Both the position numbers and the translations under genes were made by a program. The notes under the pieces were generated by a model, which did not search any database, was not told where the DNA came from, and saw only the letters and a list, made by a program, of their open reading frames with translations. From assembly GCA_902776455.1 (NCBI GenBank), contig CACYQI010000026.1, positions 5,686 through 69,685 on the forward strand: DNA of 64,000 nucleotides. The letters are read 5' to 3'. This stretch comes from an uncultured Bacteroidales bacterium. GTDB taxonomy: Bacteria > Bacteroidota > Bacteroidia > Bacteroidales > Bacteroidaceae. Within the stretch, counting starts at the first letter, position 1, and every line of letters begins with the position of its first letter. Below, one piece after another: positions 9,086 through 59,688 of this stretch.

Positions 9086-9180
9086 TTTAACGTATAAAGT
9101 TGACTGACTTAACGTATAAAGTTGACTGACTTAACGTGTAGAGTTGACTGACTTAACGTGTAGAGTTGACTGACTTAACG
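9086..9180. repeat. tandem array of about 4 units of a 22-nt repeat (C family, cttaacgtRtaRagttgactga)
   Basis: Four near-identical 22-mers directly abut the A array. Confidence 0.9.
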
Positions 9181-9318
9181 TGTGAGTCCGCTTGAAAAAG
9201 TCCTGTAAGGACTAAAAGCTCTTAGCCCAGGGCATCGCCCTGGGTAGTAATCAAGCGGTTGTGTTTCGCTCTGTAAGAGCAAAAGCAGACATCTGAACTT
9301 TTCAAGTGGACTCACGTG
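9178..9318. repeat. 141-nt multi-stem element (S element): outer stem gtgagtccgcttgaaaaag/cttttcaagtggactcac enclosing three inner hairpins
   Basis: Inner hairpins are agtcc-tgtaa-ggact, cccagggc-atc-gccctggg and gctctta...taagagc. A second copy lies at 57854-57993. Confidence 0.75.
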
Positions 9319-9366
9319 AAGTTGGATGATGCCGGAAGGAAACTGTGCCTTCTCCCAAAAAGAATC

Positions 9367-9479
9367 GCCACAATCTGCCACAATCTGCCACATTTTCCCC
9401 AATCTGCCACAAATCTGCAACACGCATATCCGTTTGTACTTCAGCGCGATATAGCCCCTCTGTGGCAGATTGGCAGATT
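9367..9479. repeat. decamer-word hairpin (D family, aatctgccac words vs gtggcagatt)
   Basis: Left arm gccacaatctgccacaatctgccac...aatctgccacaaatctgc, right arm ctgtggcagattggcagatt. Confidence 0.8.
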
Positions 9480-9531
9480 TTCTCAGAAAAAAACCTTGTG
9501 TACGCGCGTGCGCGTAACATTATTATATCTA

Positions 9532-10200
9532 CCTCCTTTGACTCCTTGGCTCCTTAGAGTTTTTTTTCTACGGAGCACATGGAGTACATGGAGAAGGCCC
9601 CGCTTCCCTCCTTTTACTCCTTGGCTCCTTAAAGTTTTTGATGCCTAAGGAGTATAGGAGTACAGGAGTTTTAGACGCTGGGAGGGGGCTTCACTTCTCC
9701 GGAGTTTTGGAGGCTGGGAGGGGGCTTCGCTTCTCCTTTGACTCCTTGACTCCTTAGAGTTGTTTTCTACGGAGCACATGGAGTACATGGAGAAGGCCCT
9801 GCTTCCCTCCTTTGCCTCCTTGGCTCCTTAAAGTTTTGATGTCTAAGGAGTATAGGAGTATAGGAGTTTTGGAGGCGGGAAGGGGGCTTCACTTCTCCTT
9901 TGACTCCTTGACTCCTTAGAGTTGTTTTCTACGGAGCACATGGAGTACATGGAAAAGGCCCTGCTTCCCTCCTTTGACTCCTTGGCTCCTTAAAGTTTTG
10001 ATGTCTAAGGAGTATAGGAGTATAGGAGTATAGGAGTTTTGGAGGCGGGGAGGGGGCTTCGCTTCTCCTTTGACTCCTTGACTCCGTAGAGTTTTTTAAT
10101 GTCTAAGGAGTATAGGAGTAAAGGAGTTTTGGAGGCTGGGAGGGGGCTTCACTTCTCCTTTGACTCCTTGACTCCTTAGATATGGAGCACATGGAGAAGC
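9532..10200. repeat. higher-order tandem repeats (about 160-200-bp units, 3-4 copies) built from octamer words (ctccttga, ggagtata, ggagcacatggagtacatgg, ggaggctgggagggggcttc)
   Basis: The anchor ctacggagcacatggagtacatgg recurs at 9568, 9767 and 9929. Confidence 0.85.
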
Positions 10201-11230: not shown

Positions 11231-11329
11231 TGCCTTTGATTGTTGCACCAGCCTGACTTCCATCACCATCGGGAACAGCGTGACCAGCATCGGCTACAGA
11301 GCCTTCTCTGGTTGCACCAGCCTGACCTC
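11231..11329. repeat. 99-nt perfect direct repeat, copy 2; the frameshift lies exactly at its 3' edge
   Basis: Same string as 10886-10984. The next base diverges (catcccg vs ccgtcacc). Confidence 0.85.
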
Positions 11330-22778: not shown

Positions 22779-24836
22779 TCAGAACTGGAAATAGATGAAG
22801 GGCTGCATTTCTGCGCTCACGAACTGGTAGATGATGACGACCATGACGATGCAGACGAGGCACATCGCGGGCAGGGGCATCGTGGCGAAGGCAAGGCGGT
22901 AGCGGCGTTTCCATTGCTCTGGAAGCCAATGGATTATCATGCCTGCGATGAAGAGAAGGAAGACGGCCCGATGGGTGCTGGCTATGGCCCAGACGTCGCC
23001 CGTCCAGCGTGAACCGATGCGCGTCACCATCTCTCTGGCCGTCTGCCACGCCTGTTGGTTGGCCGTAGCAGGGTCGAGGTTGCTGCCCGAGCGGAAGAAA
23101 AGGCGCGTGAAGCTGATGAAAGTGAAGGTGACAAGGATGGCCCACGGCCGCGCAAGAGCAGCAGGTAGAAGCCTAACGGGCTTTTGGAGAACGCTGAAGA
23201 CTCTGAATTCTCTGAATGCTCTGAGTGCTCTGAATGCTCCGAGTTCTCTGAATACTCCGATTATTCTGAATGCTCTGATAAACCTCAGCCAAGCGCTGAT
23301 GGCGATGAAGCCTGTGAAGCAGAGGAAGATGCGCCATACTGGTGCCGGCATGAAGACGGTGAGTGCCCAGCAGACAAGGGCTGCGGCTGTGGTGGCGATG
23401 GCGCGGTGGAGGGGCTTTGCGTCGCGCCAGAACTTATAGACAATCATGCCCACGCCGTTCAGTCCGCCCCAGATGAGGAAGTTGAGGCTTGCGCCGTGCC
23501 AGAGACCGCCCAGCAGCATCGTCACCATGCTGTTGAGGTTCGCATAAATCTTCTTGCGGCGGTCGGGACAACGCCATGCCGTCAGGATGACAGAAAGGGC
23601 GAGAAGCAAAGCGCCTGCTGCCACCCAGATGCTGCCGCTCAGGATGAGGCCGGCAAGCGTGAGAACCGCAATCCAGAAGTACGTCCCGAAGGTGATGTTG
23701 CGGTTGCCGCCTAAGGGAATGTAGAGATACGTCTGTAGCCAGCGGCTCAGGCTGATGTGCCATCGCTTCCAGAAGTTCGAGCAGTTCTCGGCCTTATAGG
23801 GCGAGTTGAAGTTGCGGGGCAGGTGGAAGCCCATCAGCAACGACAGGCCGATGGCAATGTCCGTGTAGCCCGAGAAGTCGGCATACACTTGGAGGGAGTA
23901 GAGGAAAAGGGCGGCGAGGTTCTCGAAACCCGTGAACAGCAATGGATTGGCAAAGACGCGGTCGATGAAGTTGAGTGCCAGATAGTCGCTCAGGATGATC
24001 TTCTTCGTCAGTCCTCCCACTATCCAGAAGATGGCGATGCCAAACATTCTGCGGCTCAGGAAGTAGCGTCGGTAGAGCTGCGGAATGAAGTCGCTGGCCT
24101 TGACGATAGGGCCTGCCACGAGTTGCGGGAAGAAGCTGACGTAGAAGCCGAAGTCGAGGATGTTGCGGACGGGACGGATGAGGCCTCGATAGACATCGGC
24201 GGTGTAGCTGATGACCTGGAAGGTGTAGAACGAAATGCCTACGGGCAGGATGATGCGGTCCACGCTGAACACAGGGCTACCGGCAGCCGCGTTGAACCAC
24301 TCGGCAGCTATGTTCCTCACTTCAAGCTCGATGCCGAAGATTTGTCCCACTATGTCGGCGAAGAAGTAGCTGTACTTGAAGTAGCAGAGGATGCCGAGGT
24401 CGAGCGTCACGCTCAGTGTGAGCCACAGGCGTTTACGCCACTCCGACGTGCTCCGATAGATGCGCTGGGCGATGAAGAAGTCGCTGCAAGTCACCAGCAG
24501 CAGCAGTCCCACGAAGAGTCCGCTCGTCTTGTAGTAGAAGAGCAGGCTCACGGCCATGAGGTAGGCGTTGCGCAGGAGCGTCCGCCGCCCCATAAGGGAA
24601 AAGCCCGCAAAGACAATGAGGAAGAACACCCAGAAGTGCATCTGCGTGAAGAGCAGCGGGCTGTTCTCGTCGAAGGAGAACACCTTCTGCAGGTAGGCTA
24701 TGAGGAGGTCAAAGTCCAAGGGCGTGGGAGTTTTCGGAGAATTCTGAGTGATCGGAGTTTTCGGAGTATTCTGAGTTTTCGGAGTATTCTGAGTGCTCTG
24801 AGTACTCTGATATGGCCTTGAAGAGCAGGTCGGCAA
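22779..24836 (-). CDS. MBOAT family O-acyltransferase (AlgI/DltB-like); start codon uncertain (TTG 24836, TTG 24719 or ATG near 24641)
   Basis: Multi-TM protein with the conserved RWHISLSRWLQTYLYIPLGGNR histidine block. The N-terminal 40 codons read through the 9-mer array and overlap the upstream gene. Confidence 0.8.
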   Translation of the reverse strand: MPTCSSRPYQSTQSTQNTPKTQNTPKTPITQNSPKTPTPLDFDLLIAYLQKVFSFDENSPLLFTQMHFWVFFLIVFAGFSLMGRRTLLRNAYLMAVSLLFYYKTSGLFVGLLLLVTCSDFFIAQRIYRSTSEWRKRLWLTLSVTLDLGILCYFKYSYFFADIVGQIFGIELEVRNIAAEWFNAAAGSPVFSVDRIILPVGISFYTFQVISYTADVYRGLIRPVRNILDFGFYVSFFPQLVAGPIVKASDFIPQLYRRYFLSRRMFGIAIFWIVGGLTKKIILSDYLALNFIDRVFANPLLFTGFENLAALFLYSLQVYADFSGYTDIAIGLSLLMGFHLPRNFNSPYKAENCSNFWKRWHISLSRWLQTYLYIPLGGNRNITFGTYFWIAVLTLAGLILSGSIWVAAGALLLALSVILTAWRCPDRRKKIYANLNSMVTMLLGGLWHGASLNFLIWGGLNGVGMIVYKFWRDAKPLHRAIATTAAALVCWALTVFMPAPVWRIFLCFTGFIAISAWLRFIRAFRIIGVFRELGAFRALRAFREFRVFSVLQKPVRLLPAALARPWAILVTFTFISFTRLFFRSGSNLDPATANQQAWQTAREMVTRIGSRWTGDVWAIASTHRAVFLLFIAGMIIHWLPEQWKRRYRLAFATMPLPAMCLVCIVMVVIIYQFVSAEMQPFIYFQF
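23196..23285. repeat. 10 x 9-nt in-frame tandem repeat (J family, GAATGCTCT) inside MBOAT
   Basis: gaagactct gaattctct gaatgctct gagtgctct ... translated on the minus strand as RAF/REF/RVF/GAF triplets (IGVFRELGAFRALRAFREFRVF). Confidence 0.9.
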
Positions 24837-27513: not shown

Positions 27514-27557
27514 CGAAATAATTCTTAATTCATCATTCTTAATTCTTAATTTCTTTG

Positions 27558-28708: not shown

Positions 28709-29021
28709 AGGAAAAAGGAAAAGGGCGCACTGGTGATGTGATGAAACTCCGAAAAACAGGTTTTGAGGGTTCGCCGCCTTTGTAATCCACCTAACCATAA
28801 ATGGGATGGCACGCCATTGGACAGACGAAACAGTTCTCGGTAATAAAATGTAAATTGATGAGTATCCCGATCTAACCAGTACGCCCTATTTGTGTATGTC
28901 TTGCCAGCTGCAAGGCCATTTAGGTCTTCAATTGTATTGCAAAAATAGTAAGTCTTGTTGTAATATGCAAGTTTTTTAGGCTTTTTCTTCGTCTTCCTTT
29001 GGCATTTTGTTGAAAACTTCC

Positions 29022-29058: not shown

Positions 29059-31614
29059 ATGACGCTACATTTCTCCATTGAATACCGAACGGAATGGGGA
29101 CAGTCCGTTGAGGTCGAACTTAGCTTCCTTTCTGCCGACGGAAAGACAACCCGACAGTACATTCTCCTCGAAACAGACGACGGGGTCTTCTGGAAAGGTG
29201 TCTTCAGGCTCAAGTCGCGCAGCAGCCAGTTCCGATACACGTATATTATAACCGCTTCCCACCAGTCGCAATCCCGCTCCACTGCTGCCGAAGGAGAGGA
29301 TGCCAGAGGTGTGATTGAGGGGGGAAGGGCTGTGCTGCGCCGCGAATGGGACGTCGTGCCGCGCCTTTTCCCTGTTGACGACAACCGGACATACTTCTTC
29401 CTGGACCATTGGCGCGACAGGCCGGCTTCTTCCTATTGCTATACCGATGCCTTCCGCATCAGTTCGGGAATAGCGAAAAACTCAGCCGTCATGCCTGCCC
29501 TCTTTCCCCGTACGTGCCTCTTCCGCATTCAGGCTCCGCAACTTCAGCCTGGAGAGAGGGTTGCACTCCTTGGCGACCAGCCCGCCCTGGGCAACTGGGA
29601 CGTGGCGCGAGCCTTGCCCATGATGCCGTCCAGCAATGGCGAGTGGCTTCTTTCCATCAGCGGCGACGGCTTGCGTCTGCCGTTCCAATATAAATATATA
29701 AAGGTAGGGAAGGACCATTCGGTGCTTTGGGAAGAAGGTCCCAACAGGCAAAGTCCGGAACACTCCCCCAAAGGGGTGGAAGGAGGAGGCTGCGTCGTCG
29801 CCCTTTCCGACGGCGAGTTGCGGCTTCCATCGCCTCGCTGGAAGGTGGCAGGCCTCGTGGTGCCTCTCTTCTCGCTGCGTTCCGAAGGAAGCCAAGGGGT
29901 AGGGGATTTCGGCGACCTCTGCCAGATTTGCGACTGGGCAGCCTCTACAGGCATGCATGCCGTACAGCTCTTGCCCATCTACGACACTACCCAGAACCGC
30001 ACCCCAACGGACAGCTATCCCTACAACGCCATTAGCGTCCACGCCCTCCATCCCATCTATGCCGACCTGCGCCGCCTGCCTCTTGCCGATGCCGAAGCAC
30101 TCGCTTCCTTCCGCGAAAGATGGCAGAAACTCAACGCGCTGCCTGCCATCGACTACGTCGAAGTCATCAAGATGAAGGAAGAATACCTGCACCTCCTCTA
30201 TGAAGAGCAGACAGCCTCTTCCCAACCCTCTCCCGTGGGAGAGGAAAGCCTCTCCCCAGACCTCTCCAAAGGGGAGGGAGTTTCGTCGCCTTGGCTGCTG
30301 CCCTATCAGGTCTTCTGCCACTTGCGCGACACCTACGGCACAGCCCGTTTCGCCCAGTGGCCCAAGCTCTCGGCCTACAACCAGAGTGCCGTGCGGAGGT
30401 ATGCCGAGCGTCATGCTCACGAAATCGGCTATTATGCCTTCGTGCAGAACATCCTTCATCAGCAACTTTCCGAAGCGGCCGAACATGCCCGCCGCCTGCG
30501 CGTCTTCCTCAAGGGCGACTTGCCCATCGGCATCAGTCCCAATAGCGTAGAGGCTTGGCAGTCGCCACACCTCTTCCACACTGACATGGCAGCCGGAGCA
30601 CCGCCCGACGACTTCTCGGCCACAGGGCAGAACTGGGGCTTCCCTACCTACGACTGGGAACGCATGGCTGCCGACGGCTACCAATGGTGGAAGCAGAGGC
30701 TCAGGGACATGTCGAAGTACTTCGGAGCCTACCGCATCGACCATATCCTCGGCTTCTTCCGCATCTGGCAGATACCTCGGAACAGCCCCACAGCCCTCCT
30801 CGGACAGTTCTCGCCCGCTCTGCCCATGAGCGTCGCAGAGATAGAGTCCTACGGAATGCCCCTCGTGCCGGAGCTTTTCGTGCCCGATGCCACCCGTCCC
30901 GACCTCTACCACCCGCGTATCGGAGTGATAGGCGAGAAGGCCTGGTGCAGTCTCCCCAAGTACGAACAGGACGCCTTCATCCGTCTCTACGAAGACTTCT
31001 TCTTCCGCAGGCACAACAACTTCTGGGCAGAGCAGGCCATGCATCGGTTGCCCGTCCTCGTCGATGCTACCGACATGCTCGTCTGCGGCGAAGACCTCGG
31101 AATGGTGCCCGACTGCGTAGGCCCCGTCATGCAGCACCTCGGCATCCTCAGCCTCGAGATACAAGCCATGCCCAAGGCCTACGGCGTGCGCTTCTCCCGC
31201 CTTTCGGACAACCCTTATCGAAGCGTAGCCACCATCTTCACCCACGACATGCCAACCCTCCGCCTCTGGTGGAAGGAAGATGCCGAGCGCACCAGACTCT
31301 ACTATAATGAAGTGTTGGAGCACGACGGCCCTGCGCCCGACGACCTTCCGGGATGGCTGCAAGAAGAAATCGTGGCACACCACCTCAACTGTCCCTCCAT
31401 GCTCTGCCTCATCAGCCTGCAGGACTGGATATCGATGGACGAGAGCCTGCGCAACCCGCATCCCGAAGAGGAGCGCATCAACGTGCCAGCCAATCCCAAG
31501 CACTACTGGCGCTACCGCATGCACATCCCCATATCGCGCCTCCTCGCCGCCGATGCCCTGAACGACCGCCTGCGCACCCTCATCGCCCGCTCCGGCAGGG
31601 AGTGCCTTCTCTAA
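29059..31614 (+). CDS. malQ: 4-alpha-glucanotransferase (GH77) with an N-terminal starch-binding-type module
   Basis: 851 aa with GH77 blocks VQLLPIYDT, YRIDHILGFFRIW and GEDLGMVP. Confidence 0.85.
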   Translation: MTLHFSIEYRTEWGQSVEVELSFLSADGKTTRQYILLETDDGVFWKGVFRLKSRSSQFRYTYIITASHQSQSRSTAAEGEDARGVIEGGRAVLRREWDVVPRLFPVDDNRTYFFLDHWRDRPASSYCYTDAFRISSGIAKNSAVMPALFPRTCLFRIQAPQLQPGERVALLGDQPALGNWDVARALPMMPSSNGEWLLSISGDGLRLPFQYKYIKVGKDHSVLWEEGPNRQSPEHSPKGVEGGGCVVALSDGELRLPSPRWKVAGLVVPLFSLRSEGSQGVGDFGDLCQICDWAASTGMHAVQLLPIYDTTQNRTPTDSYPYNAISVHALHPIYADLRRLPLADAEALASFRERWQKLNALPAIDYVEVIKMKEEYLHLLYEEQTASSQPSPVGEESLSPDLSKGEGVSSPWLLPYQVFCHLRDTYGTARFAQWPKLSAYNQSAVRRYAERHAHEIGYYAFVQNILHQQLSEAAEHARRLRVFLKGDLPIGISPNSVEAWQSPHLFHTDMAAGAPPDDFSATGQNWGFPTYDWERMAADGYQWWKQRLRDMSKYFGAYRIDHILGFFRIWQIPRNSPTALLGQFSPALPMSVAEIESYGMPLVPELFVPDATRPDLYHPRIGVIGEKAWCSLPKYEQDAFIRLYEDFFFRRHNNFWAEQAMHRLPVLVDATDMLVCGEDLGMVPDCVGPVMQHLGILSLEIQAMPKAYGVRFSRLSDNPYRSVATIFTHDMPTLRLWWKEDAERTRLYYNEVLEHDGPAPDDLPGWLQEEIVAHHLNCPSMLCLISLQDWISMDESLRNPHPEEERINVPANPKHYWRYRMHIPISRLLAADALNDRLRTLIARSGRECLL
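30215..30280. repeat. in-frame GC-rich palindrome element (B family) inside malQ
   Basis: cccaaccctctcccgtgggagagg (palindrome at 30226-30244) plus cctctccaaaggggagg. Translated as SSQPSPVGEESLSPDLSKGEG. It shares the cccaacc flank with the copy at 3729. Confidence 0.8.
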
Positions 31615-31631
31615 ATCCAGACCCCCTCTAA

Positions 31632-31674
31632 CTCCCCCATAAGGGGGAGGACTCCCTCTCCCACGGGAGAGGGT
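31632..31674. repeat. two GC-rich palindromes just after the malQ stop (ctccccc-ataa-gggggag; ccctctcccacgggagaggg)
   Basis: Arms checked by reverse complement. Confidence 0.9.
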
Positions 31675-31744
31675 TTGGGAGAGGCTGCGGGGGGAAGTGT
31701 CGCTGTCGTTCCTCGTCGGCGACCTCTTTGCGGAGTGTTGATTT

Positions 31745-31825
31745 ACACTCCACGTTGCATCGGCTTACACTCCACGTTGCATCGGCTCACGCTCCACGTT
31801 GCATCGGCCGATGCTCCACGTTGTG
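31745..31825. repeat. A-family 22-nt units, reverse orientation (about 3.5 copies of acactccacgttgcatcggctt)
   Basis: Tandem units lying between malQ and mltG. Confidence 0.85.
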
Positions 31826-32886: not shown

Positions 32887-32949
32887 CATAATTTCGCCCG
32901 AAAAACAAAAATTTTCAACTTTCAACTTTCAACATTCAACTTTTTTTTG

Positions 32950-32968: not shown

Positions 32969-33041
<73 letters not shown>

Positions 33042-33241: not shown

Positions 33242-33313
33242 AGGTGCCTGGCGGATTCGAACCGCCGTTGACGGTTTTGCAGACCGTTGACTAAGCCACT
33301 CATCCAAGGCACC
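33242..33313 (-). tRNA. tRNA-Cys (anticodon GCA)
   Basis: Reverse complement reads GGTGCCT...ACGGT-CTGCAAA-ACCGT...GGCGG-TTCGAAT-CCGCC-AGGCACC-T. 72 nt with a U73 discriminator. Confidence 0.85.
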
Positions 33314-36287: not shown

Positions 36288-36382
36288 TAAAAAATAGAAG
36301 AAAGAAACGTGAAGAAAGTAAAATTATTCTCCTTAATGCTTAATTTTTTCACTTTTCGCTTTTCTTTTTGCGCATTTTGTTG

Positions 36383-36390: not shown

Positions 36391-36621
36391 CAGCGCAAAA
36401 GTAAAGAATTAAAGTGAAGAAGAGAGTCGTTTCCGTCTCAATATGCCTGCTCTTGACGCTGATAATGCTTGCCTGCAAGTCAGCTCACTACTGTAATTGC
36501 GGTTGATTCGCCATAATCGCAAAGGAATAGCAAGTTGAACAATCGCAAATATAATAAATAGTAAATCGTAAATCTTTAAATAGTAAATCACATTAACCCT
36601 TTTAATTTAAAACAAAACAAA

Positions 36622-37843: not shown

Positions 37844-38056
37844 AAAGTCCCGAAGGGACGAGAGACCACAGACGGGGGCGCAAGCCCCCGGTAGTAGTGC
37901 GACAATCAAAGAAGCCCCGACGGGGCGACAGAGACCTAATCATGTTGTTATTAAACACGTTACATGTTCTGTCGCCCTTTCAGGGCTTAGTTTTGTTAAT
38001 TCGCTTGTACCGGGGGTTACACCCCCGTCTGTGGTCTATCGCGCCTCCGGTGCTTA
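37844..38056. repeat. 213-nt mirror-symmetric element made of six local hairpins around a central stem
   Basis: Hairpins at 37847-59, 37873-90 (GCAA loop), 37914-26 | 37974-86, 38011-27, 38041-53. Shared arms are agaccacagacggggg and cccccgtctgtggtct. Confidence 0.8.
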
Positions 38057-40634: not shown

Positions 40635-43600
40635 ATGAAACGCAGCATTTTATTTTTGCTTTGGGCAGTTACCATATTGTCTGCCAACGCTCTTGAGGTA
40701 ACAATCCACGGTTTGAACTATTTCTTGGATTCTAAAAGCCATGAGGCTGTCATTACCAGTGGTGGCACTTGCTCGGGCGAGTTGGACATCCCTTCAGAGG
40801 TATGCTACAATGGAGAGACATTTGTCGTAAAGAGCATGATCTGGAAAGCATTCGACGGATTGGTCGAACTGACAAAAGTGAGGATTCCAAAGACTCTTGA
40901 GAGCATCATGCATGAATACCCGCAAGAGCCTACTTATGAAGATGTAGAACTACCATATGTTTTCTACCCATGCACGAATCCTTTTACCAGATGTACCTCC
41001 CTTGAATCGATAGAGGTGGACGAAGAGAACCCTGGCATGAAGTCCGTCGGTGGTGTGCTCTTCAGCAAGGACGGGACATGGCTGTACGCCTATCCGGCTG
41101 GTATCAAAGCAGCAAGTTACGATGTGCCACAAGGTGTCACACAGGTAGGGACTTTCGCTCTTGCCAATGAAAATCTTAAGAAAATAGATTTGGCCGAGAG
41201 TGTACAAGCAGTCGGCCTCAATATATGTTACGATTCCTCGCTCGACACCTTGATAATTAGAGGAAGGAATGTTGAGGATATCAGTATGCGCGGCTGGTTC
41301 TTGGAATGTCTGAAAGATACAGCGAAACTCTATGTTCCTGCCTCAGAGGTTGACCGCTACAAGAGTCTGTATTCTGGGACTGTCCTGCCGCTGGAGGAAT
41401 ATGAAGGGAGGAAGGTAAATCAAGAGTACTTCCCCGAGGGGACGAAGTGGACGGAGATACGTTTGGACACCCTGAAGTACGATAGCTGGTACTCAAAGGT
41501 TGGAGACGAGTGGGTACCTAACTTTGAGACGATAGAATACCGCGTGCAAGGAGAGCATACGTCGTTTGGGACACATTATAAGTGTGTGTACAATAATGAC
41601 CCTGACTGGGCAGGTCAAGCCACTTTTTTAATCTACGAAAAAGACAATAATGAAGTGTTAGTTTCATTATTAGTTCTTGACGAAAATGGTAATGAATCTT
41701 ATACATTTGTGCCATCAGAAATTTATCAATTTAATTGGAGCATTGGACAATGGATGTGGTTTCAAACCCCAGATGAAACAAATACCACAGTTATCTTTCA
41801 AAAACGCTATAGCTATGGTATAATAGATGAAATAAAAGAAGGGTACTTCGGAGGTGTGAGTCCATTGAAATATGTGGATTTGGATGGCAAAGCGCCTGAT
41901 AATCCAGAACTAGAGCCAAAATATGTTGATACCAATGGTGGTCGTATTATTCAAGGAATAGGCATTACAGAGTGGAATGACGGGGAGTGCCTTTTGGGTC
42001 CAATCAACATGTATAAGTATCTGGATATGTGGGGCGTGGGTAGAGAACGTCACTACCGATCCATGCTTGTCCACTTCGAGCGCGACGGCGAGGTGCTTTA
42101 TGATGTTTGGCCTCGGAAGGGGAGTACTGTAGAGGTTGCTATTGATGGTTTGAATTATTTCCTGTACTTAGACAGACATGAGGCTGTTCTTACTAGCAGA
42201 AACAATTGCTCTGGCGAGGTGGACAAAGGTAAGGATACCCAAGACCATTGAGGAAATCATACATTATTATCCTGTTGACCCCGACTGGCTTGATCCGCCT
42301 ACAGGGATGGCCAATCCTATTTATGTAAATCCCTTTAAAGGATGCACCGCTCTTGAATCGATAGAGGTGGACGAAGAGAACCCATGCATGAAGTCCATAG
42401 ATGGCGTACTCTTCAGCCAAGATGGAGTTGGACAATACTATTATAAAACAGGCAGTTATTCAGGAACAGGGCTTTATTGCTATCCAGAAGGTGTCCGACA
42501 AGAGTCTTACACTATTCCTGAGAGTGTGGAATGGATTGGTGGAGCAGCTTTTCCCAATAATCAGTATCTTACTACATTGACGATACCGAACAGCATGAAA
42601 CACATATGTTATGATGCTTTCTCTGGCTGTTGCAATCTGACAGATGTCTATTGCTATGCAGAAAACGTCCCCATCGCATGGGACGGTGCATTCAGAAACG
42701 TTCCCATAGCTTCTGCCACGCTTCATGTGCCTGCTGGCTCTATAGAAGAGTACAAGACGACTTCGCCTTGGAGCAACTTCGGCAACATCGTGGCACTGCC
42801 AGATAATAATTCTTACTATTATTATTACAAAGGAAACAAGATTCCTTTAGCTCTGAACGAAAACAAGGTCGTTGTCAGCATCCCTAAAGAATGTGATGAA
42901 ACAAGCGAAAGGATTCAAGCAAATGTTCAAGTCCTGACGACAATAAAGGACAACTATTTCGACATTATTGTTATATCGCGGTCAGATTATGAGCATTTAA
43001 CCTCAATGGATTCCTGGGAAGAGGATGAAAGGAATGTGGTATTGTCATCCTGTTATTTTACAGAGAGAAACGATGAAGTTTGTGCATCGCCATATCTGAA
43101 TGTAAAAATCAAAAAGGAACAGGACACAGACTTGCTGAATGCGTATGTTGAACAGTATAAGCTCAGATATGGTGACTATAAACCCCTAATTACATTGTGG
43201 TATGTTTTGTCTGTTACACCCGAAACTGAGAAAGACCCATTGCAAGTGGCAAATGAACTGTATGAAAGTGGAGATTTTGCAGTATCAGTACCGGACTTGG
43301 TTGATATTGAACCTGAACCACTCGAACCAGTCACCTACACCGAAGAGCAGATGGCGACGATTGTGCTGCCGACGGAGCCGGATGCAAGCAAGGGGAAGTA
43401 CTATAGGCTGGACCGCGTGGAAGGTAATGAGATTGTCTTCGAGCAGGAGCTGCAGCCTTGCGCACATGTTCCTTATATTATTGTGCCGAGCGAGGACTTC
43501 AGCATTGAGGTGGACGCATTGGAGCTGGATGGTTTGCGCTGCGACACGGCGAGCGTGGAAGGCATCAGCTTTATCGGCACTTTCCAAAAGGAAGAGGTTG

Positions 43601-43965
43601 AAAGTCAGGAGGGCTTCTACATCGAACTCATCGACACGACGCCCGACTGCAGCCTTTCCGCCTCCGGGGAGGCAGGCAGAGAGGTGTACACGATTGGCAC
43701 CTTGCGTGCGTACTTGCTGGTACATTGGGACGACCCCTACAGTCATGGCGGCACGAAGACACCTGCAGAGAAGCTTGAGATAGTGCTGCATGACGATGCC
43801 ACAGGCATCGAATCAATTCAAAATTCAAAGTTCAAAGTTCAAAATGAGGATGCCGCCATCTACGATGTTGGCGGGAAACCGGTAAATCGTAAGTCGTTAA
43901 GCCGTAAATCGACCCGCGGTATATATATCCAGGATGGCAAGAAAGTCGCATTTAAGCAGGAGTAG
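40635..43965 (+). pseudogene. two-module BspA-like LRR protein with T9SS C-terminal domain, split by a frameshift at about 42225
   Basis: ORF 40635..42251 has the signal peptide but no CTD. ORF 42178..43965 has the CTD (IYDVGGKPVNRKSL...GIYIQDGKKVAFK) but no signal peptide. Module 2 repeats module 1 but lacks the 86 nt equivalent to 40789-40874. Confidence 0.7.
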
Positions 43966-43977
43966 GCCAAAGCCTAT

Positions 43978-46224
43978 CTACCATTTGATGCTGACTTTCA
44001 CGCCTTCGGGCTTGTTCTCGAAGCGGAGGTGCAGCAGGCGGTCCTTGCCGTCCCATTGGGTTTCGTAGGTATCGGCGCCGACGGTGATTTCCTTCGGCTC
44101 GTGGGGCAACAGAATGGCCATCACGTTGTCGGTGTTGGCGGGACTCTTGGCTGTAAAAGCATAGCGATGCTTCTCCACGAGTTCCTCTTCCTGGCGCGAA
44201 GCTGCGGCCAGCACCTGCGGACGCTTGCTGTGCTTCACCTTCCCGAGGTCAATAAGGAAAGTCTGTTCGCCGGGACGAACCATCTTCCCCGGCAGGCAGG
44301 GCAGGGTAGGGTCGAAGAGGTCGAGGAAGCGCCCTTCGAGGATGAGCGGCTCGTTGCTCACGACGCCTTCATCTACGACAGAGGCAATCAGATAATGTCC
44401 TCGCCTGAGCAGGAAGTTGTTCTTCTCTTCGAGCTTGCCGTAGGCGTTGCCAAGCGTCTGCATCAGCCTGCTATCGCCGCCTTCGTTCATGGCGAACTCC
44501 TTCGGGTCTTGCCGTAGAATATAGACGCGCCCCTTGCCGCAGCGATACTCGCCCTCGGCGGCCTTCCTCTCCATGCCCATCAGCTCGAACAGATGCTCCG
44601 AGGGGGCCTTGTAGCCGCTCTCCGTCCACCATTCCTTGATGTTCTGGAAGGCATCGTCGTCGCGACTGCAATAGATGAGCCGTCCTCCTTTCCTGACCCA
44701 TCGGGCAATGTCTTCGTGTGCCTTCGGGTCGAGCGGTTTCATGGCCGAATAGGAGAGGAGCAGCACCTTGAGCCCCGTCCATGTGTCGGCATAGCCTGTG
44801 TTTTCCAAGTGCGTGATACTGACAGGGATGCCTCGCTTCACCAGCGGAAGGGCCAGTCCGTAGAAGTTCGAGAGTTGCGGGTCGTCGTAGCCCTCGACGG
44901 GATGTGGCGAGCGCTGGAACATCAAGGAGTTCGCCATTGCTACGCTGACAGCCCGAGACCCTTCCAAACCTCCCTCCTTTTTAAGGGGCAAGGGGCAGGG
45001 GGCAAGGGGCAGGAGGATTGCTCTGGTAGTTGGTCTTCTCTTGCCCCTTGCCCCTTGCTCCTTGCCCCCTTTTGAGGGAGTAAGAGGGTCAGATGGCATC
45101 TCGTTCAACGCGTTGATCATCACCTGCATCTGCGTGGAATAGAAACGCGGTATGTGGGCACGTTCCTCGCTTCCGGCCGCGACGCGATAGAGACCTTCGT
45201 AGATGCGGTCGGGCCAAGGCATCACCTCGTAGTTGCCGATTTGTGGATAGAGCAACTGAGCCGTGAACGTGGCCTGATAGTTGCGGCGATAGTCCTCCCA
45301 GTCCTTGGCGCGGTCCTCGATGGGGTCGGTCAGGAAGAACATCTTCCGGCCGGTGGGTCGGGTCATCGACTCCATGCATCCGTATTCCAGGAAAGCCGTC
45401 TCGAAGACACGCTCGCGCGCGATACCATTATAATAATTAGGTTCGCGCGACGTGCCCGTCCAGACCTGCGCGATGTAGCCGTCGCAACTCTCCATCGAGG
45501 CAAGCGAGGCTTCGGGCGATACAATCTGCCACTGCGAATAGTTGAGCAGCGAGTGCGTCGGCACGTAGCACTTCACGTCCAGTCCCTTCTCCCGTCCGTA
45601 GGCCTTGGCGTAAGTGAAGGCCTCGTCCAAGGCACGGTAGTAGAGGTGGTACTTCAGCTTGTTCGAGAGGTAGGTGTTCTCGGCCGATTCGTGCTGAGGC
45701 CGCCAAGGGAAGCCGTAATACTCCTGCCACTCGCGCTTGAAGGCCTCGCTATAGCCGGCTCTTGCCCAGAACTCAGGCTCTTCCAGGAAGATAGCTTCGA
45801 TGCCTTGGTCTATGGCGGGACTGATGTGCTTCTCCTTGAAGTAAGCCAGATAGTTGCGCGTCGGGACGATGTAGGGCACGAGGTGTCCGTGCATGATGGT
45901 GTCGCCCCGCTGCGTCTTCTGCCCCTCGTCCATGTGCCAGCGGCCGTCCCACTTTCCGGTGAAGTAGTCCTGATACTGCCCCCAGGCGATGCCCGTCATG
46001 AAGTGCGTCGTGTAGTTGTGTTCGCGCCACGACTGCACGCGCTCGGCAAAGGAATGCCGTCGGTTGTCGTTCACGCCATAGACCATCACGGCATCCGAGC
46101 GGATGTCGGTTGTCGGCTTCCACGGCCCAGCGGTCTGGAACGTTGTCTTCTGTGCGTGGCAGGCTGCTCCGAAAAGGAACAGACAGCAGGCTATAGTGCT
46201 GACTTTCATTGATGTTTGCTTCAT
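43978..46224 (-). CDS. secreted hypothetical protein (possibly glycoside-hydrolase-like) carrying a 120-nt in-frame hairpin repeat
   Basis: The likely start is MKQTSMKVSTIACCLFLFGAACHAQ at 46224, 31 nt after a TATCTTTG box. I do not recognise the family. Confidence 0.45.
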   Translation of the reverse strand: MKQTSMKVSTIACCLFLFGAACHAQKTTFQTAGPWKPTTDIRSDAVMVYGVNDNRRHSFAERVQSWREHNYTTHFMTGIAWGQYQDYFTGKWDGRWHMDEGQKTQRGDTIMHGHLVPYIVPTRNYLAYFKEKHISPAIDQGIEAIFLEEPEFWARAGYSEAFKREWQEYYGFPWRPQHESAENTYLSNKLKYHLYYRALDEAFTYAKAYGREKGLDVKCYVPTHSLLNYSQWQIVSPEASLASMESCDGYIAQVWTGTSREPNYYNGIARERVFETAFLEYGCMESMTRPTGRKMFFLTDPIEDRAKDWEDYRRNYQATFTAQLLYPQIGNYEVMPWPDRIYEGLYRVAAGSEERAHIPRFYSTQMQVMINALNEMPSDPLTPSKGGKEQGARGKRRPTTRAILLPLAPCPLPLKKEGGLEGSRAVSVAMANSLMFQRSPHPVEGYDDPQLSNFYGLALPLVKRGIPVSITHLENTGYADTWTGLKVLLLSYSAMKPLDPKAHEDIARWVRKGGRLIYCSRDDDAFQNIKEWWTESGYKAPSEHLFELMGMERKAAEGEYRCGKGRVYILRQDPKEFAMNEGGDSRLMQTLGNAYGKLEEKNNFLLRRGHYLIASVVDEGVVSNEPLILEGRFLDLFDPTLPCLPGKMVRPGEQTFLIDLGKVKHSKRPQVLAAASRQEEELVEKHRYAFTAKSPANTDNVMAILLPHEPKEITVGADTYETQWDGKDRLLHLRFENKPEGVKVSIKW
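44969..45088. repeat. in-frame heptamer-word hairpin ((aaggggc)n vs (gcccctt)n) with an outer cctccctcc/gagggag stem
   Basis: Arms at 44983-45013 and 45038-45072. Translated on the minus strand as ...PSKGGKEQGARGKRRPTTRAILLPLAPCPLPLKKEGG... Confidence 0.85.
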
Positions 46225-46254
46225 GACTGACTTCGTAAATAACGTTTCGCTGCA

Positions 46255-46262
46255 CAAAGATA
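46255..46262 (-). promoter_or_regulatory. -7 box TATCTTTG for the 43978-46224 gene
   Basis: Plus strand reads caaagata, 31 nt upstream of ATG 46224. Confidence 0.65.
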
Positions 46263-46379
46263 AGCATTTTCCCTGAAATGGCAAGCGGTCGAAGCGAAAT
46301 AGTAGGCAGTTTTCCGTTGTATAGCTTTCCCAGAGAAATGCGCCTGAGGCGTGAGAGACCACAAGCGACCGAAACCCTT

Positions 46380-46500
46380 GTTCTGGCGGATTTGTAATCC
46401 GCCAGATGCGAATATAGGCATTTGAAATGCCGTAATTGGGGACATTAGGGGATTACAAATCCCCATACTCCTTGCGGTCGGATTGCAAATCCGACCGAAC
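46380..46500. mobile_element. MITE-like four-hairpin element (F family), copy 4
   Basis: gttctggcggatttgtaatccgccag ... ggcatttgaaatgcc ... ggggattacaaatcccc ... cggtcggattgcaaatccgaccgaac. Confidence 0.7.
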
Positions 46501-46705
46501 AGGGAGCTAAACTTGCTGTTTTGCCTCATTATATGAACTTCAATACTTGAATGGCTATTTAGCTCAATTCCTTTTTATAACGTCAGTTGGCTTTTTGCCG
46601 AACAGCAACTTGGAAGGAGAAGAGCAAGACATGTGTTGGAAAAATCCTTACAGAAAAATAAGTCTCTACGTGGACTTTTGCGCGACTCCCCGCGGGGTGT
46701 CTGCT

Positions 46706-52330: not shown

Positions 52331-52433
52331 CTCTCCTCATCCCTCCCCTAAAAGGAAGGAGGTAAGTCTCTCCATCCCTCCCCTAAAGTGAAGGGGGTAA
52401 GTCTCTCCCTTTAGGGGGAGATATAGAGGAGGC
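52331..52433. repeat. cluster of three degenerate GC-rich palindromes (tccctcccctaaa...ggagg; ctctccctttagggggag)
   Basis: B-family words between the PASTA gene and rluD. Confidence 0.7.
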
Positions 52434-53390: not shown

Positions 53391-53516
53391 ACACTTGCGA
53401 AGTTCGCGTGCTAAGTTTGCAAACTTAACGTGCCAAGTTTGCAAACTTAACGTGCCAACTTTGCTAAGTTAACGTGCTAAGTTTGCGAAGTTGACGTGCG
53501 AAGTTTGAATCTTCAC
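53391..53516. repeat. tandem array of about 5.7 units of a 22-nt repeat (K family, aagtttgcaaacttaacgtgcc)
   Basis: Units at 53391, 53413, 53435, 53457 and 53479. Each contains the 14-nt palindrome aagtttgcaaactt or a variant. Confidence 0.9.
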
Positions 53517-56786: not shown

Positions 56787-56887
56787 CAAAGAATTTCAAT
56801 ACCTTCAAAGTATTGTGTGATTTTTTTTGTCTGAAAACCCCTCACAGCCTCCCCAAAGTGTTTCCGTGTGGCATACCCCACCCCTAA

Positions 56888-56910
56888 CCCCTCCCCTGCG
56901 AGGGGAGGGG
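56888..56910. repeat. GC-rich palindrome cccctcccc-N5-ggggagggg (mirror of 8756-8778)
   Basis: The flank ccccacccctaac is the reverse complement of the flank at 8779-8791. Confidence 0.9.
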
Positions 56911-57108
56911 AAGAGAGGCTGAAACCATATCAGCGAGAGCTTTCTCCATGTACTCCATGTGCTCCGTAGAAATAAAAACTCTAAGGAGCCAAGGAGTCAA
57001 AGGAGGGAAGCGGGGCCTTCTCCATGTACTCCATATACTCCGTAGATAAAAAGGCCCCCAGCCTCCACATTGGGAGGAGGAACGCTCAGTTGCAGCTAAG
57101 AGGCTCTA

Positions 57109-57221
57109 GTTCGGACGGATTTGCAATCCGGCCGTTTTGAGTTTAGGGATTTGTAATCCCCCAGCTTATAGCATTACAAATGCTTTTTCTCAATTCTGTC
57201 GGATTTCAAATCCGCCAGAAC
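57109..57221. mobile_element. MITE-like four-hairpin element (F family), copy 2
   Basis: gttcggacggatttgcaatccggccg...cggatttcaaatccgccagaac. Confidence 0.7.
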
Positions 57222-57475
57222 TGGATGCTTCTCCATGTACTCCGTAGAAAAAAAACTCTAAGGAGTCAAGGAGTCAAAGGAGAAGTGAAGCCCCATTCCC
57301 GCCTCCAAAACTCCTTTACTCCTATACTCCTTAGACATTAATAAACTCTACGGAGCCAAGGAGTGAAAGGAAGGAAGCGGGGCCTTCTCCATGTACTCCA
57401 TATACTCCGTAGATAAAAAGGCCCCCAGCCTCCATCTTGGGAGGAGGAACGCTCAGTTGCAGCTTAGAGGCTCTT

Positions 57476-57589
57476 GTTCGGACGGATTTGCAATCCGGCC
57501 GTTTTGAGTTTAGGGATTTGTAATCCCCACAGCTTATAGCATTACAAATGCTTTTTCTCAATTCTGTCGGATTTCAAATCCGCCAGAAC
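57476..57589. mobile_element. MITE-like four-hairpin element (F family), copy 3
   Basis: Near-identical to copy 2, 367 nt downstream. Confidence 0.7.
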
Positions 57590-57704
57590 AGGATGCTTCT
57601 CCATGTACTCCGTAGAAATAAAAACTCTAAGGAGTCAAGGAGTCAAAGGAGATATGTAATAATGTATCGCGCGCATGTGCGTACACAAGGTTTTTTCCCG
57701 AGAA

Positions 57705-57812
57705 AATCTGCCAATCTGCCACAGAGGGGCTTTATCGCGCTGAAGCACAAACGGATATGCGTGTGGCAGATTTGTGGCAGATTGTTGAAAATGTGGCAGA
57801 TTGTGGCAGATT
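57705..57812. repeat. decamer-word hairpin (D family), mirror copy
   Basis: aatctgccaatctgccacag ... gtggcagatttgtggcagatt...gtggcagattgtggcagatt. Confidence 0.8.
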
Positions 57813-57853
57813 TGGGGGTGCAGGTACAGTTTCCTTCCGGCATCATCCAACTA

Positions 57854-57993
57854 CACGTGAGTCCACTTGAAAAGTTCAGATGTCTGCTTTTGCTCTTACA
57901 GAGCGATACATAACTGCTTGATTACTACCCAGGGCGCTGCCCTGGGCTAAGAGCTTTTAGTCCTTACAGGACTTTTTCGAGCAACTTCACACG
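57854..57993. repeat. multi-stem S element, mirror copy
   Basis: Reverse complement of 9178-9318 with substitutions. The cccagggc/gccctggg stem is kept while the loop changes (atc vs gct). Confidence 0.75.
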
Positions 57994-58032
57994 TTAAGTC
58001 AGGCAACTCTACACGTTAAGTCCCCCAACTTC
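57991..58032. repeat. C-family 22-nt units (2 copies), mirror
   Basis: acgttaagtcaggcaactctac acgttaagtcccccaacttc. Confidence 0.7.
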
Positions 58033-58042
58033 ACTCGCTAAA

Positions 58043-58167
58043 ACACTCCACGGAGTATCGGCTAACACTCCACGGAGTATCGGCTAACACTCCACGGAGT
58101 ATCGGCTTACGCTCCACGGAGTATCAGCTTACACTCCACGGAGTATCGGCCTACGCTCCACGTTGTG
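58043..58167. repeat. A-family 22-nt tandem array (about 5.5 units, acactccacggagtatcggcta), mirror
   Basis: Head-to-tail 22-mers in reverse orientation relative to 8880-9085. Confidence 0.9.
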
Positions 58168-59576: not shown

Positions 59577-59577
59577 T

Positions 59578-59671
59578 AATTCATAATTCTCAATTCATAA
59601 TTCATAATTACTTTTCGCGAAGAGTCTGGGCGTAGCCTTAATTATGAATTATGAATTGAGAATTATGAATT
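59578..59671. repeat. perfect 32-bp inverted repeat of octamer words (aattcataattctcaattcataattcataatt / reverse complement) with a 30-nt loop
   Basis: Arms at 59578-59609 and 59640-59671 are exact reverse complements. The element fills the adaptor-pump intergenic space. Confidence 0.95.
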
Positions 59672-59688
59672 AACAATATGTTGATAAA

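Follow-up and report, generated by a model that had tools for sequence, protein, structure and literature searches.

Rickettsia palindromic elements (RPEs) invade both coding and non-coding DNA, and 85 of the 728 copies counted in R. felis are located within open reading frames (ORFs; PMC1166351). In Xanthomonas, 70-75 cases of two convergent GGGAATC heptamer arrays with stem-loop capability are spread over the chromosome, and their function is unknown. These repeats are 89-93% intergenic (7-11% intragenic), and for the Nostoc repeats the intergenic share is 68% (PMC4692102); GGGGA(T/C)T repeats and short tandemly repeated repetitive (STRR) heptamers are found in Nostoc and other cyanobacteria. 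The enterobacterial RU-1/ERIC, RU-2 and RU-3 elements of Delihas are characterized as small non-autonomous inverted repeats with open frames, which are occasionally intragenic and add peptide segments (PMC2759123, PMC2229807). Repetitive extragenic palindromic (REP) sequences are, by definition, located outside genes, and one of their ends is marked by a conserved GTAG or CGTC tetranucleotide (PMC3733652). Here, we describe a nested hairpin made of tandem heptamers, which is located in frame in a secreted hydrolase-like gene of an uncultured Bacteroidales bacterium (GCA_902776455.1, contig CACYQI010000026.1, positions 5,686 to 69,685 of the forward strand). This stretch of 64,000 nucleotides is called the window and provides the coordinates used below. 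Our data suggest that the hairpin is probably one copy of a non-autonomous, dispersed palindromic mobile element of rumen-type Prevotellaceae that is tolerated in surface loops.

The hairpin and its host gene

A first-pass annotation of this DNA had reported a 120-nt nested hairpin at 44969-45088, which is enclosed by an outer cctccctcc/gagggag stem and read in frame within a globular secreted hydrolase-like protein. We found the arms and the stem as described, and the nested palindrome extends slightly further (44957-45093). The AAGGGGC-type arm aaggggcaaggggcagggggcaaggggcagg (44983-45013, array to 45015) and the CTTGCCC-type arm ctcttgccccttgccccttgctccttgccccc (45038-45069) involve four imperfect heptamers each and are separated by a loop of 22 nt, gattgctctggtagttggtctt (45016-45037). 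Tandem Repeats Finder yielded a period of 7 with 4.1 copies and 90% matches per arm, and an inverted-repeat search returned arms at 44985-45015 and 45038-45068 that are 90% complementary. The enclosing stem is formed by cctccctcc (44969-44977) and gagggag (45074-80; CCTCCCTCC/GAGGGAG), with GACCCT/AGGGTC further out. When the minus (coding) strand was folded as RNA, an energy of -89.5 kcal/mol was obtained, compared with -59.3 ± 4.6 kcal/mol for dinucleotide shuffles (n = 200, z = -6.5), and 0 of the 200 shuffles reached the energy of the hairpin. This fold takes in the outer stem ACUCCCUC/GGAGGGAG and an additional GACCCU/AGGGUC stem.

Alignment of filled with empty alleles delimits a composite palindromic element of about 135 nt (44957-45093), the ends of which are defined to about ±5 nt and read AGACCC.../...GGGTCT. 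In gene sense (minus strand), the element starts with the 5' half of an outer palindrome of the B type, TCTGACCCTCTTACTCCCTCAAAA (45070-45093), which pairs with 44957-44982 in the fold. It continues with the G-rich arm GGGGGCAAGGAGCAAGGGGCAAGGGGCAAGAG (45038-45069, translated KGGKEQGARGKR), the family-diagnostic 22-nt loop AAGACCAACTACCAGAGCAATC (45016-45037) and the C-rich arm CTCCTGCCCCTTGCCCCCTGCCCCTTGCCCCTT (44983-45015, translated LLPLAPCPLPL). The 3' half of the outer palindrome, AAAAAGGAGGGAGGTTTGGAAGGGTCT (44957-44982), completes the element, and its final GGGTC coincides with native letters of the empty allele. The minus-strand ORF continues through the palindrome as ...PSKGGKEQGARGKRRPTTRAILLPLAPCPLPLKKEGG... 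with 0 stops and 0 frameshifts, and its predicted translation includes the peptides GGKEQGAR and AILLPLAPCPLPLK. On the plus strand, 44983-45015 corresponds to a putative G-quadruplex motif of the canonical (G4N3)4 form. An Rfam search gave no known RNA family for the hairpin, and a terminator search on both strands of 44700-45400 gave no terminator-like site. The hairpin does not conform to an intrinsic transcription terminator (GC-rich stem, short loop, U-run); AAAAAGG follows the stem in gene sense.

The host gene (43978-46224, minus strand) encodes a secreted protein of 748 aa when read from ATG (794 aa from an upstream GTG). It carries the signal peptide MKQTSMKVSTIACCLFLFGAACHAQ, and a three-domain GH42/GH164-like fold is predicted. 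Searches of the 748-aa product against Pfam and NCBIfam gave no family match. Its homologues (more than 7800, nearly all of 705-720 aa) are found in Prevotella/Bacteroidaceae metagenome-assembled genomes (MAGs). The AlphaFold model, with a mean predicted local distance difference test (pLDDT) of 80 and a predicted template modeling score (pTM) of 0.81, involves a TIM barrel followed by two more domains. Foldseek searches with this model returned 4uzs, 3tts and 6t7g (E-values of about 1e-12 to 1e-10), which are GH42 beta-galactosidases and a GH164 beta-mannosidase with about 10% identity. Because of the signal peptide and the match of the model to GH42/GH164 enzymes, the label "secreted hydrolase-like" is fair. 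Residues 377-417 constitute the only long segment with pLDDT values below 50 (24-29); they are modeled as coil without secondary structure and would sit between the helix 360-374 and the next strand. The insert is thus predicted to lie in a surface loop away from the protein core, a location that comes from prediction and mapping and not from a solved structure of the host protein.

Among the 120 homologues listed, the segment is present only in the window protein, in P0001 (98% identity) and in P0002 (92-93%). P0003 (88%) and about 115 other listed homologues lack it and read MPLSxNxVSGSQG at that point. The first-pass annotation had proposed an alignment of orthologues as a check, and since orthologues beyond the two closest ones lack the segment, it is a lineage-specific insert. 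When the DNA of filled alleles (window, L003, L004) was aligned with that of empty alleles (L001, L002), 132 nt (TCTGACCC...GGAAGGG) were found in place of 21 nt (CTCTCCCAGAACCGTGTCAGC), which corresponds to a net gain of 111 nt or 37 codons. Three independent assemblies carry the insert and it is, therefore, no assembly artefact. The dN/dS ratio (non-synonymous to synonymous substitution rates) between insert-bearing alleles amounts to 0.10-0.16, and thus the host gene has been under purifying selection after the insert was gained. For the same reason a pseudogene, the possibility raised together with the original claim, can be discarded.

Within the element, four non-synonymous changes and one synonymous change were counted vs 12 and 41, respectively, elsewhere in the gene (p = 0.018). 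Compensatory stem changes were looked for among the filled alleles and none were seen; the three variable stem sites disrupt base pairs. The idea that the hairpin is more conserved than the gene was also rejected. It differs from L003 at 1 of 135 positions (about 8% gene-wide) but from L004 at 5 of 135, and the host gene is a mosaic in which other 132-nt segments show 0-2 differences. At the same codon position as the element, the orthologue P0115 carries a small B-type mini-hairpin, CTCCCTCC..GGGGAG. Private inserts of two other orthologues were tried as elements of the same kind and dismissed; that of P0023 forms no hairpin, and the palindrome found in that of P0098, GGGATTTCAAATCCC, is a different one. 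A GGGATTTCAAATCC-type palindrome is present in the 22-aa private insert of P0098, and therefore other repeat families also enter the host gene in frame.

Dispersed copies and sister families

The family was scanned with the exact pattern GGGGCAAGGGGC-N20-50-GCCCCTTGCCCC in one genome per species, and since all loci were located by exact patterns, the copy numbers are lower bounds. We found 105 loci, 15 of which belong to seven Prevotellaceae/Bacteroidales MAGs with up to 6 loci per MAG. The Prevotellaceae copies agree in the ends of their arms, and their 22-nt loops (AAGACCAACTACCAGAGCAATC with variants) are homologous. The heptamer had been called a private word of this gene, and this part of the first-pass annotation has to be withdrawn: the same word and a homologous loop, once together with the same outer stem, occur in at least 10 other genes of Prevotellaceae MAGs. 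That one copy, L101 (~1640-1785), is located in frame within the N-acyl-ornithine carbamoyltransferase gene of a related MAG. It is identical to the window element at 124 of 142 nt with both outer-stem halves included (about 80% for the outer stem), and its loop agrees with the window loop at 19 of 22 positions (12-17 of 22 for the other copies).

All Prevotellaceae copies with enough flanking sequence (13/13) are surrounded by an open frame, which comprises 282-1427 aa. The window copy and L101 differ in the frame of their loop (KRRPTTRAIL and REDQLSEQSS, respectively), and thus the copies resemble each other at the DNA and not at the peptide level. Some insertions are common to different species-level MAGs (L071/L074; L020/L081/L078) and can therefore persist for long. 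The orientation of the loop relative to transcription is alike in about 10-12 of 12-14 copies. We rejected this bias as a sign of function, because a TAG in one antisense frame raises the expected share to about 0.6 (p ~0.08). Phage carriage was dismissed as well, with 0 and 1 matches for the words in 2.9 million viral contigs.

(GGGGCAA)n hairpins were also observed in Geobacter, Thiobacillus, Gemmataceae, Nitrospirota and others, so that hairpins with this word are widespread across phyla. We make no claim on the genic share in other phyla, as high GC content deprives the ORF test of its discriminating power (36/80). In a Tepidisphaerales MAG (JBBQNK01), we noticed (GGGGCAA)2 hairpins that look like a classical REP family, with a conserved stem, a variable loop and many copies in this one planctomycete genome. 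They have the form AGGGGCAAGTATTCA-GGGGCAAGGGGCAAGT-(variable loop)-ACTTGCCCCTTGCCCC-TGAATACTTGCCCCT (L012, L022, L030, L035 and about 20 further loci).

The outer stem had been suggested to consist of B-family words and thereby to link two repeat classes. This suggestion holds, as the heptamer hairpin is nested in a B palindrome. B-type palindromes of the window are located at 31620-31690 (intergenic, AGACCCCCTCTAACTCCCCC-ATAA-GGGGGAG...GGTTTGGGAGAGG), 8759-8880 and 52395-52430. The outer-stem half at 45070-45093 is homologous to the AGACCCCCTCTAACTCCCCC of the 31620-31690 element, of L238 and of L101. The carbamoyltransferase alleles can be arranged as a series from a partial B element (L239) via a full one (L238) to a B element with a heptamer hairpin in its center (L101), and L239 could have been derived from L238 by a deletion between GGG repeats. 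The window copy exhibits the same composite build as L101, and the composite of B element and hairpin appears to have been transferred or copied in one piece on at least one occasion.

At 30205-30290, we also observed a double palindrome of the B type (CTCTCCCGTGGGAGAG ... CTCTCCAAAGGGGAG) in the ORF 29059-31614 (plus strand), which encodes a GH77 4-alpha-glucanotransferase with CBM20. It is in frame as ASSQPSPVGEESLSPDLSKGEGVSS and resembles the SRGRTSGEESLPIEGE insert of the carbamoyltransferase allele L238; it is probably another in-frame palindromic insert of the window.

Inserts of the same architecture had been reported for etfB and acd, and our analyses indicated that both are tandem-heptamer hairpins and in frame. 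The etfB gene (ORF 1725-2687) carries an (ATTGACC)n hairpin at a beta-hairpin turn (2190-2277, plus strand), which maps between residues 149 and 153 of 6fah_B, a solved CarD/EtfB structure, at a beta-turn. In the acyl-CoA dehydrogenase gene acd (ORF 4212-5972), an (AGTGAAG)n hairpin follows the ACAD core domain (5606-5698, plus strand). A (TAATTCA)n hairpin, which is AT-rich and contains stops, has the same architecture and is located between the genes for the membrane fusion protein (MFP) and the resistance-nodulation-division (RND) component of an efflux system (59577-59672). AT-rich, stop-containing words were found only between genes.

The ATTGACC word occurs at 120 metagenome loci at least, most of which belong to rumen-type contigs, and a consensus loop holds for more than 100 of them. 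Among the matches listed, 78 of 94 testable copies are located inside long ORFs, and in 70 of these 94 exactly one of the six frames is open. A recurrent variant heptamer, ATTCACC, eliminates the sole TGA that would otherwise interrupt the frame left open by the 5' arm. A further copy of the acd family is located in the etfB gene of another genome (L233; loop alignment score 29, p<0.0005). A loop core common to different word families was considered and rejected, since local alignment against shuffles gave p-values of 0.15-0.8 and only comparisons within a family were significant. The MFP-RND spacer carries a heptamer hairpin in both genomes compared, (TAATTCA)n in the window (59577-59672) and (ATGAAGA)n in L005 (16136-16235); words and loops differ, and the position is thus occupied by different families.

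Single loops can carry many inserts. The EtfB turn EEILSLKDGKITVKRH (295-aa base form) accommodates at least eight different ones across lineages, and L234 exhibits a one-heptamer palindrome, GTGAAGA-AC-TCTTCAC, exactly where L233 has a full hairpin. The carbamoyltransferase loop ITIEEYK/KTARPKVV carries more than 15 different inserts.

Tandem arrays are frequent throughout the window. We counted 20 arrays of period 7 vs 1.3 expected from Markov simulations, and 18 arrays of period 8 and 16 of period 9 vs about 1 expected for each. AT-rich heptamer arrays (3-5 copies) are located just upstream of matches to the Bacteroidetes -7 box TAnnTTTG at 1643-1670, 27519-27551, 32913-32943 and 36346-36364, with further such arrays at 870-902 and 36555-36589, and (TTTCAAC)4 followed by tttttgTAccTTTGc is found 25 nt ahead of the tRNA at 32969. 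The AT-rich heptamer arrays may be part of promoter upstream regions. Two mutually non-complementary arrays, (AATTCAA)4.4 at 43815-43845 and (GTAAATC)4.1 at 43882-43911, are located in the ORF 42178-43965 (plus strand). This ORF encodes a leucine-rich repeat (LRR) protein, and the arrays fall into its C-terminal region, an apparent sorting domain of the type IX secretion system (T9SS) type, where they are translated as QNSKFKVQN and NRKSLSRKS. Two period-9 arrays, (CTCTGAATG)8.7 at 23187-23278 and (GAGTATTCT)9.2 at 24727-24810, are inverted relative to each other about 1.45 kb apart. An MBOAT ORF (22779-24641) contains one of them, whereas the adjacent GDSL-lipase ORF has the other one at its start, and a 9-nt period is frame-neutral.

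More complex repeat blocks (8879-10180, 56875-58162, also 31743-31823 and 53407-53507) adjoin BspA-type LRR genes, and the first two look like inverted copies of one another. These blocks hold 22-nt tandem units (ACTCCACG..GCATCGGC / TGGAGCGTGAGCCGATGCTACA; the unit is found at four loci), hairpin-forming 8-9-nt arrays (AGGAGTAT, CTCCTTTGA) and a 162-nt unit present 2.4 times. A palindrome family based on GGATTTGCAATCC / GGATTTCAAATCC was seen at 57105-57225, 57472-57593 and 46221-46529 and in L006 (~11270-11300). The segment 38622-38766 comprises three copies of a 48-nt unit (97% matches), and each unit carries the perfect palindrome ATGTTGCGTTGCCAACGCAACAT. Among structural RNAs, a Bacteroidales-1 RNA (proposed 6S RNA) was detected at 28717-28886 (minus strand, 130 bits) and a borderline Rfam match to Acido-Lenti-1 RNA at 37846-37891 (minus strand, 38.0 bits vs a gathering score of 37). 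The latter is located in one arm of a 44-nt inverted repeat, the arms of which are 123 nt apart (37845-38055). Two tRNA genes are found at 32969-33041 (plus strand) and 33242-33313 (minus strand). The Bacteroidales-1 RNA, together with the names of the MAGs that contain homologues, assigns the window to rumen-type Prevotellaceae.

Origin of the insert and possible roles

The dispersed homologous copies argue for a mobile element, which would consist of a tandem-heptamer hairpin nested in a small B-type palindrome, measure about 135 nt and have spread to many chromosomal sites. Its entry into the GH42/GH164-like gene would be recent, later than the separation from the relative with 88% identity and earlier than the divergence of the three alleles that carry the insert, and seven surface-loop codons would have been replaced by 44. 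The copy would survive because the net change in length is a multiple of three, because the G/C-rich word is free of stops when read in the host frame and because the loop is permissive. The ribosome would read through the element and produce a disordered low-complexity loop (a GARGKGQ-type part, a linker and an LAPCPLP-type part) without a function of its own, and the enzyme would keep working despite the insert, which is presumably neutral.

The right end of the window copy overlaps the native GGGTC, and this may reflect microhomology at the junction. Given the lack of a target-site duplication, the replacement of native nucleotides and the possible junction microhomology, transposase-independent template switching (e.g., at stalled forks) or a hairpin-specific single-strand transposase would fit better than a cut-and-paste DDE transposase.

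Several observations weigh against a mobile element as outlined here. In every filled/empty comparison native codons are replaced and no direct repeat was found at the junctions, and both features would be atypical of classical transposition. With a divergence of 12% even for the closest empty allele, the exact ancestral site is uncertain. A Pfam scan of 20 window ORFs revealed no transposase. The same heptamer geometry is found in three families of unrelated sequence, which simple common descent fails to explain. Single loops with many inserts and one-heptamer mini-palindromes could also mean local growth. Finally, we infer the translation of the segment.

Local growth is the first alternative to be considered. 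A short palindrome would then have expanded into the hairpin at its present site, through slippage of heptamers together with intra-strand (snap-back) template switching, in which one arm or flank was copied onto the other, and nothing would have moved between loci. Several of the above data are consistent with such an origin: arrays of heptamers, octamers and nonamers exceed their expected number in the window by a factor of 10-15, replaced native codons come without a target-site duplication, and flanks often extend the palindrome. The one-heptamer palindrome of L234 at the exact site of the full L233 hairpin, the small B-type insert of P0115 at the same codon position and the hotspot loops with their many unrelated inserts point in the same direction. 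However, the heptamer word imposes no constraint on the loop or on the outer stem, and yet both are alike in unrelated genes (19/22 and about 80%, respectively). Loop homology over at least 10 genes, the ATTGACC consensus loop across more than 100 loci and the common loop of the acd and etfB copies (p<0.0005) are likewise difficult to reconcile with independent growth. Moreover, short forms can equally be read as deletion scars (L239 from L238). Local remodeling (gain or loss of heptamers, deletion scars) probably took place after insertion and cannot account for the dispersal. Taken together, we consider growth in place rather unlikely as the origin of this hairpin.

A second alternative is that selection maintains the structure itself. 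A stable intragenic hairpin or a template-strand G-quadruplex might pause ribosomes or polymerase, set the mRNA half-life or provide an RNase III site, and thus tune expression or co-translational export. The fold energy, the (G4N3)4 motif of the plus strand, the prevailing loop orientation and the single difference to L003 are compatible with this idea, and similar G-rich heptamers have been studied as G-quadruplex formers in Xanthomonas and Nostoc (PMC4692102). However, nearly all orthologues work without the element, which is found in functionally unrelated genes for both cytoplasmic and secreted proteins. Its arms are symmetric at the DNA level and thus nothing is RNA-specific, and the allelic changes break pairs in a non-compensatory manner. 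The low divergence from L003 is unexceptional in a mosaic gene, and L004 shows five differences. The orientation bias is not significant when loop stops are allowed for, no Rfam family or terminator-like site was found, and the sister families lack G-runs. These data make a selected nucleic acid structure decidedly improbable.

A selected protein feature, i.e., a functional new loop of 44 residues (basic/Gly followed by Pro/Leu/Cys) that serves, for instance, as surface-binding or linker peptide, is highly improbable: alleles with sequence differences of up to 8% all keep the segment in frame, and RPE-type inserts have reportedly been proposed by Claverie and Ogata as raw material for new protein segments, but AlphaFold assigns pLDDT values of 24-29 and no secondary structure to it, the substitutions inside it are mostly non-synonymous (4:1), and other genes read their copies in other frames, so that the peptide is not the conserved part. 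None of our findings calls for a functional peptide or for a role as regulatory RNA or G-quadruplex, and the mobile element remains our preferred reading.

A broader interpretation is more tentative. Rumen and gut Prevotellaceae may harbor a large, undescribed class of ORF-adapted hairpins, in which several families of unrelated sequence would have a structural design in common, with 4-5 heptamers per arm and a 22-31-nt loop. They would be sometimes nested and mainly intragenic, with stop-avoiding variants in their consensus sequences. Such hairpins might repeatedly remodel the same surface loops of housekeeping enzymes (EtfB, acyl-CoA dehydrogenase and N-acyl-ornithine carbamoyltransferase) and spread independently of a classical transposase by hairpin-driven, microhomology-mediated template switching. 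Related heptamer hairpins in Planctomycetota, Pseudomonadota and Nitrospirota hint at a general generating mechanism. We regard this class as possible, with the balance of our judgment still against it. In the literature searched there was no description of such elements in Prevotella or Bacteroidales, which does not disprove that one exists.

Comparison with known systems

In-frame palindromic elements in working genes have so far been treated as a peculiarity of Rickettsia. Here, they are found in abundant free-living gut and rumen Bacteroidota, with a much higher intragenic share and a distinctive tandem-heptamer design. The element would thus be a translated genomic passenger and no private oddity of its host gene. 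If this is true, a second data-rich system becomes available for exploring the entry of selfish DNA into proteins and the origin of new loops, with thousands of metagenomic alleles and with hotspots in well-structured enzymes such as EtfB to draw on. Annotation would be affected, since the low-complexity segments lengthen proteins and split protein clusters, and inserts present or absent between close strains could serve as strain markers. The finding would also be relevant to an old question, namely why bacterial genomes contain heptanucleotide repeats in excess.

When the element was compared with MITEs (transposable elements of the miniature inverted-repeat type), terminal inverted repeats were found in the window copy, in L101 and in the B elements (AGACCC(CC)TCT ... 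AGAGGGTCT), which is trivial in a full palindrome. The junctions lack a target-site duplication and native nucleotides are replaced there, which separates the element from MITEs. With REP sequences and their REPIN arrangements it shares the short GC-rich dispersed hairpins, the many copies per genome and the lack of a target-site duplication. In contrast to REPs, it is not extragenic (13/13 GGGGCAA copies and, among the matches listed, 78/94 ATTGACC copies are intragenic), and the GTAG/CGTC tetranucleotide is absent from its ends. The RU-1/ERIC, RU-2 and RU-3 elements differ in being mainly intergenic, in having defined terminal inverted repeats and in lacking tandem-heptamer arms.

The Xanthomonas repeats and the cyanobacterial STRRs are more similar. 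They, too, are tandem heptanucleotide arrays of at least three units, with two convergent arrays close together, and the (GGGGCAA)4 arm of the Prevotellaceae element is likewise a putative G4-type motif, as in Xanthomonas and Nostoc. Unlike these predominantly intergenic repeats, the Prevotellaceae copies are almost all intragenic and in frame. In each Prevotellaceae family the loop is conserved and non-repetitive, an outer palindrome is present in some cases, and the ATTGACC and GTGAAGA words share this architecture without G-runs.

With RPEs, the element has in common that palindromic repeats of about 100-150 nt are dispersed in many copies, with homologous copies in unrelated genes. Insertion is in frame and tolerated in functional proteins (here 13/13 long ORFs and a dN/dS of 0.10-0.16), and the inserts are located at the protein surface, as suggested here by the coil at residues 377-417 of the AlphaFold model and the position of the etfB insert at the beta-turn of 6fah_B. 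The element would fall outside the RPE sequence families of Rickettsiales, being set apart by its Prevotellaceae host. RPEs belong to obligate intracellular Alphaproteobacteria, whereas the present element is found in free-living gut and rumen Bacteroidota. Its arms consist of 4-5 tandem heptamers, for which we know of no counterpart in RPEs, and several sequence-unrelated families share the same geometry. The intragenic share (13/13 for the GGGGCAA family and, among the matches listed, 78/94 for the ATTGACC family) is far higher than the approximately 12% in R. felis. In addition, the Prevotellaceae elements are nested in a second palindrome family and single loops are hypervariable hotspots. 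Among the known systems, the Rickettsia RPEs come closest as to how the element works, and the heptamer repeats of Xanthomonas (GGGAATC) and Nostoc as to how it is built.

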